64,000 nt of DNA. Origin: Octopus vulgaris. Lineage: Eukaryota. Positions 8,695 through 61,623 of the stretch are shown here, in pieces; the first letter of the stretch is position 1; the number at the start of each line of letters is the position of its first letter. The DNA is taken from the NCBI GenBank assembly GCA_951406725.2, contig OX597827.1, positions 77,500,001 through 77,564,000 of the forward strand. Direction: 5' to 3'. The notes under the pieces were generated by a model. That model was not told the DNA's origin, did not search any database, and saw only the letters and a program-made list of their open reading frames with translations. A program made the position numbers and the translations under genes.

Positions 8695-10700
8695 TTGATG
8701 GCGATGATGATGATGATGATGATGATGATGATGATAGGGGTGAAGCCTAATGATGATGTGCAGGAGGAAATGGGGGGGGTAATGATGATGATGAGGAGGA
8801 GTAGCAGTGATGGAGGTGGTGATGATGATGATGATGATAGTATTGTTGTTATTGTTGTTGTTGTTGTTGGTGATTTTGAAGGGGATAACAATACAGGGAG
8901 TTAAAAGCGAGAGGGAGTGGACCAAGGAGATATGATAGAAAAGCGCTTTAATGATTGGTGTGTGTGTGTGTGAGGGGAGGGAAGACGGGGGGGGGAATCG
9001 AGTAATTAGGGGACAGTAACTGTAAAGAGGGGGGATGGCGGAGGGGGTGTTGTTGTCATAGTTCAGACGCTGATATTATCACTGTCACTGGCAGTATGAC
9101 CACCACCACCACCATCATCATCAATCATTCTCAGCAACAACAACAACGCCACCACCATCACGTTCATCATCATCATCATCATCATCATCACTATCACCAC
9201 TGCCATTACCCCCCCTCCCCACATCGTTATCATCATCCTCATCATCCTCGTTCTTATCAGCTTCATCATCATAATTGACTACAACACCATCATTTTCATT
9301 ACCATCATCATCATCATCATCATCATCATCAGCAGCAGCAGCAGCAGCAGAAGCTTGGTTATCTCCATCACTACTACTACCCCCACCACCACCATCATCA
9401 TCACTGCCACCACCACCACCACCACCACTATCATCATCATCATCATCGTTACCACAAACCTTACTCATCACTGTTATCATATATTAGCATCATTTAGGTT
9501 ATCACCATCAACATCAGCATCATCGTCATCATCGTCATCATCATCATCATCCTCCTCCTACCTTCACCAACCACCACCACCACCATCACAACCATCGTAG
9601 CCATGACTGCTACTATCTCACCACCATCGCATCCACTCGTATCTCAGTAATCATCATCATCATCATCATCATCATCATTACCTCACATCACCCATTGGAA
9701 ATGACAAATTGGGAATGGGGTGGTGGTGGTGGTGGTGGTGGTGGTGGTGGTTTAGTGGTCGTGGCAGTGTCATGCTGATTGATGGTGGTGGTAGTGATGA
9801 TGACGATGATGATCATGATGGTGATGATGACGACGCTGGTTGTTGGTAGAGATGGTTGTGTCGATAACGATGATGATACTGCTGTCGGGGGGGGGTGGGG
9901 AACAGGATGATGTATGACAGCAGCAGAAAGGGTGGCGAGGGCGGGGGCGATTGTAGTAGTAGTAGTAGTAGTAGTAGTAGTAGCAGCAGTAGTAGTTTAG
10001 TAGTAGTAGTGGTGGTGGTGGTGGTGGTGGTAGTAGTAGTAGTAGTGGTGGTGGTGGTGGTGGTGGTGGTGGTGGTAGTTGTAGTGGTGGTGGTGGTGGT
10101 GGTAGTAGTAGTAGTAGTGGTGGTGGTGGTGGTGGTGGTAGTAGTAGTAGTAGTAGTAGTAGTAGTGGTGGTGGTGGTGGTGGTGGTGGTAGTAGTAGTA
10201 GTAGTTAGTAGTTAATGGTAGTCATTAGTAGTGATGGCGATGGAGGCTGGTGCTGATTATGGCAATTATGCTGATAGTGGTAGTGATGGTGATGATGTTT
10301 ATTACTAATGATGTACAATGGTGGCGGTGGTGGTGGTGGTGGTGATGATGGTGGTGATGATGATAACACCTATTACAATGGCTATGTCAATAGTGGTGTG
10401 GGTGATGGAGGTAGTGGCGGTGGTGGTGGTGGTGGTGGTGATGGTGGTGGTGGTGGTGGTGGTTGTGGAGGTGGTGGTGGTGGTGGTGGTGGTGGCGGCA
10501 GCGGTGGTGATGGTGGTGGTGGTGGTGGTGGTGGCGGTGGCGGTGGTGGTGGTGGTGGTGGTGGTGGCGGCGGTGGTGGTGGTGTTGGTGGTGTCGGTGG
10601 TGTTGGTGGTGAAGATAATGGTTTTTCTCATTGTTATCGTCATTGTTGTTGTCGGTGTTGAAGTTAGTGGTTGTTGGCAACAGTATGGTGGCATTGGCTG
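8695..10700. repeat. Cryptic trinucleotide low-complexity block (GAT/GGT/AGT; CAT/CAC polarity at about 9095-9690)
   Basis: Directly visible runs of gat, ggt, agt and their complements. Confidence 0.95.
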
Positions 10701-11374
10701 CAGTAACAGCAGGGTGGTAGTATGGCCGCTGTAGCCACAGTGGTAGTAAACTAGCTTCTAGCGACAGTAAACAGCTAACTATATTGAACACAAGTTGATT
10801 GGGAAAAAAGGTGGAGATGGCAAGGATGGACTGGTGAGCAGTGGTGTGTGGTATGGTTTGGCATGATGTGTTGTAGTACATGTGGCGTGAGCGGTGCTCT
10901 GTGAGATGTAGTGTGGGTGTAGCGTAATATCTTTGGGGGTGGTCACATGTGGAGGGGTGTGGCATAATAAGTTGCACTGTGATATGCATGCTAAAGTAAG
11001 AAAGAGTGGTGTGTAGCATATTGAGAGCTGGGGGTGGTGTTGTGAGACAGGGACCAGGATGGTGTGGTGTTGTGAGACAGGGCCCAGGATGGTGTGGTGT
11101 TTTAAAATCCCTGTCTTGTCACGGCATGCTCACTGTGTTTATTTGAACGAAAACTTCTTGCTCGACATCATCCACTGACGGTCCACACAGATTGATCTGT
11201 CACCGTCCACCTTGTTCTAAAGTGTCTTCGTCCAGTTTATGTAACGTGTTCAGTGGAAATGGAAGATGTGACTACATCCTAAATCAGTTCTTTCTCCCTT
11301 AGGAGGGCCATAAAGGGGCCACTGACAATTCTGACAGAAAGACCCCACCCACCCACCCACCCACCTGGACGGTT

Positions 11375-59110: not shown

Positions 59111-59655
59111 GTAAGAGAGTAAAGTAAGAAAGAGAGGGAGGGATAGAAGATAGACAGACAGAAAGTAGAGAGAGAGAGATAGAGAGGAGAGAGAGGTGGG
59201 TTGGTGGAAAGGAAAACAGAAGGCATTAAACCAGTGAAGAAAGATAAAGACTAAGGTGAATATACATATAACACACACACAACTATATATACATATATTT
59301 CTGTGTATATATATATATATGTGTGTGTGTGTGTGTTGGAGGGAGGGACAAAGATGAGTGTTGAAAGATAAAAAAAGAAAAAAATCTCTCAGTTGAAATA
59401 TGTTTTAAGCAAGAGAGAGAGAGAGAGAGAGAGGCAGAGAGCACAGCAAGTCCTTAAGCAAGTCTTTCCACGGGAAATATCGAAATGTCTTCAGCGTTAA
59501 TCTAACCATGTTAAAATTGTGAATATTCCAGAAACAAAGTTCTTTTAACAGCAGCAACAGAAATAACCACAACAGTAGTGATATTATTAATAATAATAAT
59601 AATAACAACAACAATCAACTAAACTGTTTCCCCTCACCTCACCAAATTCTACAGA

Positions 59656-61623
59656 ATGGAGTCATTACAACCTATGTATTCATCTTCTGGGACTGGTTTA
59701 GTTCCGCCTGGAAATAACCCCAATGCAGGGCAAGATACAAGCAGCAGTGGTGGCAGGGGTGGCGCAGGGAACCGTGTCACCAACAGCAGCGGTGGCACTA
59801 ATGTCGGTCGACAGACAACCAGCATGGAACACATGCGAGGCAACGACGTGTTCTACAGGGACAACTTACTGAAGGGGCCACACCCTTCTGCTGGGCACAC
59901 ACACCATGCTCACAGTCACGCCCACAGCCACGCCCACGGTGGACACCATGACCATCACGCCCACAGCCACGCCCGACACACCAACTGCAGTGGCAGTGGG
60001 GGTGGTGCCGGTGCCGGGGGCACTGGCAACCATCAACATCATCATCATCACCACCACCATCACCACGGGCATATCGGAGGGGTTAACCAGAATGCCCTTC
60101 ATTCAGGAGGTGGTGTCGGTGGCACCGGTGGTAAGGGCCTCGGTGTCGGTTTGAACAACACCAACATGAACACAAACGTCAACCCGGGCCTCAACGTGAA
60201 CCTGGGACCGAGTCCCAACACCGCTGCGAACATGCCACCAGCCACGAGCATCGCAGGCAATGTAAACATAGCCCCTCCCCAACAACAGCAACAACAACAA
60301 CAGCAGCAGCAGCAACAACAGCAGCAGCAACAACAGCAGCAGCAACAACAACAGCAGCAGCAGCAGCAACAACAACAACAGCAACAACAACAGCAGCAAC
60401 AACAACAACAGCAACAGCAGCAACCACAAGCACCACACTCACAGCCGCCTTCGACAAGTTCTTCAGCCACTACAATGAATATGAGTATGCCATCAGGCAT
60501 GATAGTGAACGCCAGCATGGTCGGTATGAACATGAATGCCATCCATACCATGCATACCATGCATGCGGCCATGAACATGATGATGATCAAACGACACCCA
60601 ACGAGTAGTGAGAAAGAGGAGAAGCAACACAAGTGTGATGTTTGCCGCAAGACTTTCACTCGACGATCGGACCTGTTGAATCACCAGCATGCTGCTACGC
60701 TGAACGACGATGGCAAGCACTTCTATTGTTCGTTTTGCCGTAAAGCATTCCCCATCCGTGCTCGACTCAAGGACCATTTACGCACACACACCGGCGAGAA
60801 GCCGTTCCGGTGTGTCTACTGCGAGAAAATGTTTGCGCACCAGACCAACCTGAAGTCACATCTCCGTTTACACACTGGCGAAAAACCTTTCAAGTGCATC
60901 GTATGTAGTAAGGCTTTCTCGCACCAAACCAACCTGAAGAGCCACGAGCGCACGCACACGGGCTGCAAGCCGTACCACTGTGGATACTGTGGTAAAGCGT
61001 TTTCTCATCAGACAAACCTGAAGGACCATCAGCGGATCCATACTGGTATCAAGCCCTATCGATGCAGCTATTGCGACAAGGCCTTCAGCCATCAGACGAA
61101 TCTCAAAGACCACGAGAGGACCCACACCGGCGTGAAGCCCTTTCAGTGTACATACTGTGATAAAGCATTCAGTCACCAGACGAACCTAAAGGACCACCAG
61201 AGGACCCACACGGGCGAGAAGCCTTACAGTTGTTCCTACTGTCAGAATGCGTTCAGCCATCAGACTAACCTGCGAGATCACGAACGAACCCATACGGGCG
61301 TGCGACCGTACCAGTGTCGCTTCTGCACGAAAGCGTTCAGTCACCAAACGAACCTGCGAGATCATGAGAGGACTCATACGGGTGAAAAACCTTACCAGTG
61401 CGCGTACTGCGAGAATGCGTTCAGCCATCAGACCAACCTGAAGTGCCACGAGAGGCTACACACCGGTGAAGCTGCCAAGACGTTCACGTGCACGGTCTGT
61501 AACAAAGGTTTTGCTCACCAGACTAATCTGAAGGTCCATGAACGCACTCACAACAGGGGGCCGGCGGCGGTGGCGGCGGTAGCGGCGCAGGAGCAGAACA
61601 AGGCCCCTCCGCCGAAAGGATGA
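59656..61623 (+). CDS. C2H2 zinc-finger transcription factor, 655 aa; His/Gly-rich and polyQ N-terminus; 10 canonical fingers plus 1 atypical finger
   Basis: Uninterrupted ORF with an in-frame upstream stop at 59620. C-X2-C-X3-F-X5-L-X2-H-X3-H motifs are joined by TGEKP/TGxKP linkers. GC-rich coding-type composition contrasts with the flanks. Confidence 0.95.
   Translation: MESLQPMYSSSGTGLVPPGNNPNAGQDTSSSGGRGGAGNRVTNSSGGTNVGRQTTSMEHMRGNDVFYRDNLLKGPHPSAGHTHHAHSHAHSHAHGGHHDHHAHSHARHTNCSGSGGGAGAGGTGNHQHHHHHHHHHHGHIGGVNQNALHSGGGVGGTGGKGLGVGLNNTNMNTNVNPGLNVNLGPSPNTAANMPPATSIAGNVNIAPPQQQQQQQQQQQQQQQQQQQQQQQQQQQQQQQQQQQQQQQQQQQQQQQQPQAPHSQPPSTSSSATTMNMSMPSGMIVNASMVGMNMNAIHTMHTMHAAMNMMMIKRHPTSSEKEEKQHKCDVCRKTFTRRSDLLNHQHAATLNDDGKHFYCSFCRKAFPIRARLKDHLRTHTGEKPFRCVYCEKMFAHQTNLKSHLRLHTGEKPFKCIVCSKAFSHQTNLKSHERTHTGCKPYHCGYCGKAFSHQTNLKDHQRIHTGIKPYRCSYCDKAFSHQTNLKDHERTHTGVKPFQCTYCDKAFSHQTNLKDHQRTHTGEKPYSCSYCQNAFSHQTNLRDHERTHTGVRPYQCRFCTKAFSHQTNLRDHERTHTGEKPYQCAYCENAFSHQTNLKCHERLHTGEAAKTFTCTVCNKGFAHQTNLKVHERTHNRGPAAVAAVAAQEQNKAPPPKG
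60280..60423 (+). repeat. Coding CAA/CAG tract encoding 48 glutamines
   Basis: 144 nt of mixed CAA/CAG codons between PP and PQAP. Confidence 0.95.

Follow-up and report, generated by a model that had tools for sequence, protein, structure and literature searches.

A selectively maintained homotypic nine-finger C2H2 array in Octopus vulgaris as a plausible reader of trinucleotide repeats

The window analysed here, a stretch of 64,000 nucleotides of Octopus vulgaris DNA (contig OX597827.1, positions 77,500,001 to 77,564,000), contains a mixed trinucleotide block, several retroposon-derived copies, and a genuine open reading frame for a C2H2 zinc-finger protein (Table 1). The ESM Atlas carries an entry identical to the 655-aa sequence, which may derive from the same genome, and the four coding differences found in read contigs all lie at the third codon position and are synonymous by inspection. 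As had been described from the sequence alone, the N-terminal part combines a polyQ stretch with a His-rich region, in which 27 of 64 residues are His and the His10 codons form a (CAY)10 run (60037-60066). The C-terminal part has ten canonical fingers of the pattern C-x2-C-x12-H-x3-H which, together with an atypical F1 with short His spacing and a non-canonical linker, make up 11 C2H2 fingers. TGEKP-like linkers (TGxKP/RP) are found from F2 to F10, the linker between F10 and F11 is longer by two residues, and the helix of F2, with Ile-1, Arg+3, and Asp+6, is unlike those of F3-F11. Among ten Pfam families tested, neither BTB, SCAN, KRAB, nor SET was detected, and no effector domain was found among these families.

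Table 1. Features of the window, with positions counted from its first letter.
Feature	Position	Strand
Mixed trinucleotide block (GGT, GAT, AGT, GTT, GCT), G-rich on the + strand	8695..35231	+
Period-3 tracts within the block	~8701-10700, 15801-21100, 22201-22600, 29501-33400, 33801-35200	
SINE-like family with (ATG)n tail, example copy	23353..23741	+
Other (ATG)n tails of the SINE-like family	~5758(-), 14458, 23031, 24097(-), 24663(-), 24944(-), 57045	
Purine-rich GA-repeat stretch, candidate first exon of the sequence-only reading	35300..36669	+
Cluster of a second SINE-like family, copies separated by (ATT)13-17 tails	50378..52032	+
LINE ORF 3' fragment with 11-bp (ATG)n tail	54552..54945	+
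Segment 5' of the ATG, bridged unspliced by contigs of 4/4 runs (probable 5' UTR)	59440..59655	+
(AAY)9 run, closest predicted site of full length, 40 bp upstream of the ATG	59589..59615	+
ORF of the 655-aa C2H2 protein, uninterrupted	59656..61623	+
His/Gly-rich low-complexity region, aa 77-140, including His10	59884..60075	+
polyQ48, aa 209-256, CAA/CAG mixture	60280..60423	+
Fingers 1-2	60634..60789	+
Fingers 3-11, nine with identical HQTNL helix, mostly TGxKP linkers	60811..61551	+

All nine fingers from F3 to F11 have His at -1, Thr at +2, and Asn at +3 of the helix, and the residues at +6 are in this order S, S, D, D, D, D, D, C, and V, so that the earlier description of the helices (His-1, Asn+3, acidic +6) applies, with an acidic +6 in five of the nine. 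The four terminal fingers of the array differ at +6 and may not all engage; long C2H2 arrays often engage just a subset of their fingers. Over all finger pairs, the HQTNL codons have a pN of 0, against saturated synonymous differences with a pS of ~0.8, and the variable finger scaffold reaches a pN of 0.41, with a DNA identity of 52-75% from finger to finger. As there is zero amino-acid change in the HQTNL codons against saturated synonymous change, the array is no recent duplication and is maintained by selection. It has been considered that the identical helices are left over from tandem duplication or from gene conversion, as in minisatellite-like arrays, and as such uninformative on the target, and TRF does detect an 84-bp period across the array, but with matches of only 72-73%, and the synonymous saturation extends even into the HQTNL codons, in which Thr uses all four codons and Leu three, which largely refutes this explanation and leaves it very improbable. 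The nine-finger array is kept homotypic by selection, which fits a period-3 DNA reader. PRDM9-type arrays also consist of tandem 84-bp finger repeats, but there the fingers vary mainly at the helix (as in a PDB match), the reverse of the present pattern of a constant helix in an otherwise diverged finger; with repeats that are not near-identical, fixed contact residues, and neither SET nor KRAB among the ten Pfam families, the protein does not belong to the PRDM9-like group.

In a comparison set of 359 fetched proteins, which are search hits and no random sample, the longest run of identical -1 to +3 helices is the nine of this protein, the next best being five, and the H-x-T-N helix is found in 15 of 4773 fingers, nine of these 15 from the protein itself. 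None of five PDB alignments shown contained the HQTNL helix. Word-index searches gave generic multi-finger proteins and no orthologue among the best 120 of 8000, 7809, and 1371 matches, with local identities of at most 51%, 57%, and 61%, respectively, and this absence is weak evidence because long arrays crowd the search lists. The relatives in the ESM Atlas are generic C2H2 clusters, no representative matched the N-terminal 209 aa, and ten start variants of the protein were absent from the exact-match collection.

With its nine identical helices, the protein is predicted to be a sequence-specific binder of double-stranded DNA that would read successive triplets in register, and base preferences can be estimated from B1H constructs of other proteins (PMC4005693 supplement 3). 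All nine constructs with His-1/Asn+3, which represent just four distinct helices, prefer A as the middle base (0.73-1.0), and at the 3' base T is top in seven of the nine (mean 0.52) and C in two (mean 0.23) (PMC4005693). At the 5' base, constructs with Asp+6 and Asn+3 gave A in three and C in two of five cases, depending on the context, which does not bear out the claim that acidic residues at +6 favour C; two constructs with a His-1/Ser+2 neighbour had C/T at this position (PMC4005693). The B1H file has no match to Thr+2 in a His-1/Asn+3 helix and none to an Asp+6/His-1 junction (PMC4005693 supplement 3). A designed module ending in T does contain His-1, as the sequence-only reading had it, but so does one ending in C; in a different context, two modules designed for CAn did not work. 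When repeats were scored, (AAT)n tied with (CAT)n at the top, (CAC)n and (AAC)n came next, and the AAG and AGG classes were low; a ranking of (CAC)n above (CAT)n was dropped in view of the T over C preference in the B1H constructs. A fair prediction would be (N-A-T>C)n, in which the middle A is backed, the 3' T over C modestly so, and a 5' C is not backed. Such a protein would prefer ATC- and AAT-class microsatellites first, and mixed CAT/CAC/AAC/TAC tracts second. A triplet-periodic DNA reader is in agreement with the selection on the helix and with the B1H preferences, but the (CAT)n specificity that had been claimed is not, as (AAT)n scores equally.

Period-3 repeats are abundant in the window. 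The tracts within the block add up to ~13 kb in five sub-blocks, and perfect runs of at least three units cover, of 26,537 bp, 1927 bp for ATC, 1885 bp for ACC, 456 bp for ACT, 277 bp for AAC, and 226 bp for AGC, with only 12 sites of perfect (CAT)9. Runs of (ATG)/(CAT) with at least five units occur 43 times in the block versus none in 100 of 100 base shuffles, and ATC-class runs of at least four units amount to 564 bp per 10 kb inside the block versus 24 outside, which is a ~23-fold difference within the window. A massive block of (GAT)n/(CAT)n mixed with (GGT)n had been reported and does exist, but the "many kilobases" assigned to it shrink to the above 1927 bp when perfect ATC runs are counted. 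The (ATG)n tails on retroposons were also found as described, namely in a SINE-like family and in a LINE fragment that ends in (ATG)3-4 at 54935; this fragment had no Pfam match, and we take it to be RTE-like by resemblance. The retroposon tails are short, with perfect stretches of at most 25 bp, and account for 121 bp of the 1927 bp of ATC. Near the gene, no perfect NAT runs are longer than the (ATT)13-17 tails of the second SINE-like family. Per-motif microsatellite counts for octopus were not found in the literature. A set of 121 metagenome loci matching a 24-base SINE motif was rejected as background, because these loci have only a core of 39-53 bases of one family in common and none of six other queries from the window matched, which indicates other organisms; the same motif gave no loci in viral contigs.

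The full model of the sequence-only reading was a (CAT)n-specific reader that autoregulates via the 8.7-35 kb block beside its first exon. The C/T at the 5' base of the two constructs with the His-1/Ser+2 neighbour speaks for this model. If a 5' C is assumed, 52 strong nine-finger sites are predicted in the block versus one in 35.2-59.7 kb, and (CAY) runs of at least nine units occur 40 times in the block and not at all between block and ORF, but when the mean measured for Asp+6 is used instead, the enrichment is reduced to 12.1 versus 3.3 predicted sites per 10 kb. Tandem repeats cover 28%, versus 7.45% simple repeats published for O. vulgaris with a different method. A donor-like GAG/GTAAGT at 36669/70 ends the purine-rich stretch 1.4 kb past the end of the block, in line with the candidate first exon at 36.5 kb, but the membership of this exon in the zinc-finger gene is unsupported because the presumed acceptor AG at 59653-54 is crossed unspliced by contigs of four out of four runs, which show neither a joint nor a loose end there, these runs being RNA by tool guess only or unlabelled. 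Three contigs extend to ~59412 if collinear, and the segment directly upstream of the ATG is probably 5' UTR. With a block in which ACC is as abundant as ATC and which ends 24.4 kb before the ATG of the coding exon, no splice seen at 59655, and predicted sites nearer to the gene, autoregulation through the block is a weak proposal and unlikely, and the full model of which it is a part is improbable.

It is plausible, and on balance slightly favoured, that the protein is a reader of trinucleotide repeats, which can be tested. Its affinity would climb with repeat length, the polyQ and His-rich regions may recruit cofactors or drive self-association, and the protein may mark or stabilise repeat tracts and retroposon tails genome-wide, in which case the upstream block would be one bound site of many and no dedicated feedback element. 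A more elaborate and quite doubtful version would be a molecular ruler, in which the nine fingers bind strongly only to NAY tracts of ~9 units or more, the ATC/AAT microsatellites of a very repeat-rich genome are coated by the protein together with the retroposon tails from which they arise, the polyQ and His-rich regions organise the repeats, and the total repeat load feeds back on the own locus through the block, the (AAY)9 run, or the (CAY)10 run.

A somewhat unlikely alternative is an ordinary transcription factor that uses few fingers at enhancers and promoters, on a shorter motif that is AT-rich or of the GAT/CAT type, and binds microsatellites incidentally. The variation of the terminal fingers at +6 and the differing helices of F1 and F2 would suit such a factor, polyQ and His-rich regions are common among ordinary transcription factors, and ZSCAN4, in the parts of the papers available to us, targets a defined motif within repeats and not a pure repeat, but nine identical helices amid a drifting scaffold would be left unexplained. 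It is also conceivable, and improbable, that the array binds RNA, such as triplet repeats in transcripts that contain repeats or stem from retroposons, or else a protein surface that is repeated: any periodic ligand would suit identical helices, and more than 35% of octopus transcripts contain repeat fragments, with one RTE transcript having a microsatellite end, but the canonical TGxKP linkers and Asn+3 are established hallmarks of C2H2 proteins that read DNA in the major groove.

The proposed trinucleotide-repeat reader has precedents as a repeat reader among C2H2 proteins, namely ZSCAN4, CLAMP, and ZNF191. In ZSCAN4, one finger with His-1/Asn+3 lies over a CAC triplet. GAGA factor has a BTB/POZ domain, whereas no BTB was found here among the ten Pfam families, and both GAGA factor and CLAMP have GA repeats as target, whereas NAT/NAY is predicted here and the AAG and AGG classes score low; there was no sign of orthology to either protein. 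As far as the available parts of the papers go, ZSCAN4 of mouse and human occupies microsatellites genome-wide and has been proposed as a protector (PMC7083622, PMC10785592), and the octopus protein would be a similar C2H2 occupant of microsatellites, with its binding predicted, but ZSCAN4 has a SCAN domain and recognizes TGCACAC within (CA)n, whereas here there are nine identical fingers, a predicted period of three, and no SCAN. The accessible text on Drosophila CLAMP describes a glutamine-rich domain in combination with tandem fingers at the C-terminus, which is resembled here by polyQ48 and the C-terminal fingers, as well as binding to GA repeats, the expansion of which increases the density of CLAMP sites (PMC4945028); the string "autoregulat" does not occur in that paper. 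ZNF191/ZNF24 binds to a microsatellite of the type (TCAT)n, with silencing that depends on the allele, according to the part of the source at hand (PMC2694838), and differs by its SCAN family membership and tetranucleotide target. A further comparison is with lineage-expanded invertebrate C2H2 genes that are predicted to bind transposons; octopus zinc-finger motifs have been tested against TE consensus libraries, as stated in the available part of that study (PMC10547256). No KRAB (as in KRAB-ZNF proteins) or other effector was found here among the ten Pfam families, and a target in the simple-repeat tail instead of the body of the element would be a distinct mode.

The gene is a good candidate, to which the autoregulation story adds little. 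The microsatellite-reading zinc fingers compared above have dinucleotide or tetranucleotide repeats as their targets, or motifs that are embedded. If true, with one finger per triplet unit, binding would be set directly by the length of the repeat, and the His-1/Thr+2/Asn+3/Asp+6 helix would fill a missing data point of the C2H2 code. In a genome in which retroposon tails seed such repeats, the expansion of microsatellites would then be tied to the regulation of genes or to the stability of repeats.

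Microsatellites and SINE-like repeats abound in the window, which is animal DNA and, by the resemblance of its repeats, probably Octopus-like. Its single zinc-finger ORF encodes a protein with a Gly/His-rich N-terminus, a polyQ48 tract, a Met-rich stretch and 11 C2H2 fingers (F1-F11). Ten Pfam families match this product, all of them zinc-binding, and the same search found no KRAB, SCAN, BTB or SET domain. An ESM Atlas entry, which may derive from the same genome, is identical to all 655 aa, and 95-100% of the sampled words of the finger region are present in 20 of 24 listed sequencing runs (9 studies, five coded organism labels); the four coding differences in the placed contigs are each synonymous by inspection.

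The strongest result of the analysis, which the sequence-only reading did not have, concerns the array F3-F11, in every finger of which helix positions -1 to +4 read HQTNL. The codons of this motif have no nonsynonymous difference in any finger pair and are saturated at synonymous sites (pS ~0.8); in the variable scaffold pN is 0.41, and DNA identity between fingers is 52-75%. A recent duplication or conversion would have made the silent sites uniform, and the helix identity is thus kept by selection. That it is a neutral relic is very improbable, as the silent sites are saturated and not homogenised. Among 359 proteins with 4773 fingers, a set skewed toward long vertebrate arrays, this run of nine identical helices is the longest, followed by one of five.

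The DNA target was predicted from measured bacterial one-hybrid (B1H) matrices (Gupta 2014, supplement 3; PMC4005693), in which a search over part of the +2 residues gave at least nine His-1/Asn+3 constructs with four distinct helices. The nine constructs found all prefer A in the middle (0.73-1.0), and at the 3' base seven prefer T and two C (means 0.52 and 0.23). The 5' base is A in three and C in two of five Asn+3/Asp+6 constructs, and C or T in two constructs with a His-1/Ser+2 neighbour; neither Thr+2 combined with His-1 nor the Asp+6/His-1 junction is among the constructs found in that supplement (PMC4005693). As far as the excerpts of two further papers go, designed modules use His-1 on both AGT and CGC (PMC7317221), and two designed CAn modules did not work when placed in a different context (PMC3919609). 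Repeat classes score, in bits per finger, AAT 3.86, CAT 3.34, AAC 2.92 and CAC 2.40 with the Asp+6 mean, and CAT 3.76, TAT 3.56 and CAC 2.82 with the junction model. From these preferences and scores, the loose (NAT)n target of the sequence-only reading is kept and widened to NAC, whereas its strict (CAT)n form is dropped.

Features of the gene, the block and neighbouring repeats in the window
Feature	Position	Strand	Length, basis or remark
ZNF ORF, single	59656-61623	+	655 aa
Donor-like site	36669	+	sequence
Acceptor-like AG	59653-54	+	sequence
Mixed trinucleotide-repeat block	8695-35231	+	
(TATC)n directly followed by (TAGA)n	14489-14809		inverted junction of GATA-type repeats, ~320 bp
SINE-like copies, ~seven	50378-52032		head-to-tail, diverged (68-80%), (ATT)n tails between
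MITE-like family	27882-28389, 48120-48480, 53339-53784, 57691-58127		~140-bp inverted arms, 91-96% identical, around (AAT)n or short spacer

Perfect runs of at least three units in the block amount to 1927 bp ATC, 1885 bp ACC, 456 bp ACT, 277 bp AAC and 226 bp AGC, and (ATG)/(CAT) runs of at least five units number 43, against 0 in 100 shuffles. In-frame triplet usage is GGT 749, GAT 677, AGT 240 and GTT 119. In each of five period-3 tracts, ~13 kb in sum, the + strand is the G-rich one (GC skew 0.35-0.66); this holds over 26 kb (8701-35200), with short inverted patches, for example at 9100-9700. ATC cover is 564 bp per 10 kb within and 24 bp outside the block; outside it, the most abundant triplet repeat is AAT, at 113 bp per 10 kb. 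As tandem repeats cover 28% of the block and 9% downstream, and simple repeats are reported at 7.45% for O. vulgaris, by a method other than that behind our 28% (PMC13282606), the block is probably above the genome mean.

Retroposon tails of (ATG)n, claimed earlier for family D and RTE elements, were indeed found, on one SINE-like family (assumed to be family D) in about eight places and on a LINE fragment (11 bp). They do not explain the block, since they are at most 25 bp long and account for 121 of its 1927 ATC bp. An ORF fragment at 4079-4435 (-), without a Pfam match, resembles the C-terminus of a mariner transposase. At 61866-61923, one SINE-like family has a core of 39-53 bases that recurs in 121 metagenome loci, none of which holds any other repeat of the window; this core is a SINE domain conserved in other animals. 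Microsatellite tails are described as common among RTE elements (PMC9115989). By implication, ATC sites would be numerous across the genome, and any claim of this locus to be special is the weaker for it.

The gene start bears on the proposed autoregulation through the block, which ends just before a candidate first exon at 36.5 kb. A donor-like site is present there, but the block lies 24.4 kb from the ATG, and contigs of four of the 24 listed runs (three RNA by guess only, one unlabelled), placed on 59440-60275, cross 59654/55 in all four runs with more than 31 letters on each side. At this point the four runs have neither a joint nor a loose end among those listed, from which one of each, at repeats, had been discarded; run contigs lose rare forms. 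If the placed runs are RNA, the acceptor is not in common use. Contigs of three runs extend past 59440, to ~59412 if collinear. A local promoter may lie in the second GA-rich stretch, found at 59.1-59.4 kb. Two other sites that resemble acceptors, at 58410 and ~58538, follow long pyrimidine tracts, and with a donor-like GG|GTAAGA at 59112 may mark a further 5' UTR exon.

The most likely reading, which we favour by a little, is of a protein that would bind (N-A-T>C)n tracts of double-stranded DNA in register, and more tightly as the tracts grow longer; its low-complexity regions may recruit chromatin factors to repeats throughout the genome or assemble them there. An ordinary factor with a short motif is possible but unlikely, and an array whose ligand is RNA or protein is decidedly doubtful. 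The full sequence-only model is a special case of in-register reading, to which it adds a strict (CAT)n target and feedback by way of the block; it is equally doubtful. The block does hold 12 perfect (CAT)9, nine (CAC)9 and forty (CAY)9 sites, and predicted nine-finger sites are 3.7-fold (Asp+6 mean) to ~45-fold (5' C assumed) denser there than at 35.2-59.7 kb. Against it stand, besides the contigs and the distance, the predicted sites nearer to the gene: (AAY)9 at 59589-59615, 40 bp 5' of the ATG, and (CAY)10 in His codons at 60037-60066, both full-length and within the gene's own transcript region. The (ATT)13-17 tails of a second SINE-like family at 50.8-51.4 kb are also longer perfect NAT sites closer to the ORF. 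The boldest view, a dedicated ruler for NAY tracts of ~9 units or more that senses repeat load by feedback at its own locus, is improbable. Overall, the earlier observation and its interpretation have each survived in part.

In-register binding would let the protein work like ZSCAN4 (PMC7083622, PMC10785592), CLAMP (PMC4945028) and ZNF191 (PMC2694838), as far as the parts of these papers covered describe them. It belongs with none of them, as its predicted target differs from all three and it lacks the SCAN domain of ZSCAN4 and ZNF191 as well as a BTB domain, and no orthology to any of the three was seen. A bulk test of octopus ZNF motifs against transposon libraries is described in part of one study (PMC10547256), and the open-access text searched gave no paper on an HQTNL helix or a microsatellite-binding octopus ZNF, which figures and supplements may hold. 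If the predicted binding is true, the protein would be a homotypic triplet-repeat reader, akin to the microsatellite-reading C2H2 factors but with a different target.
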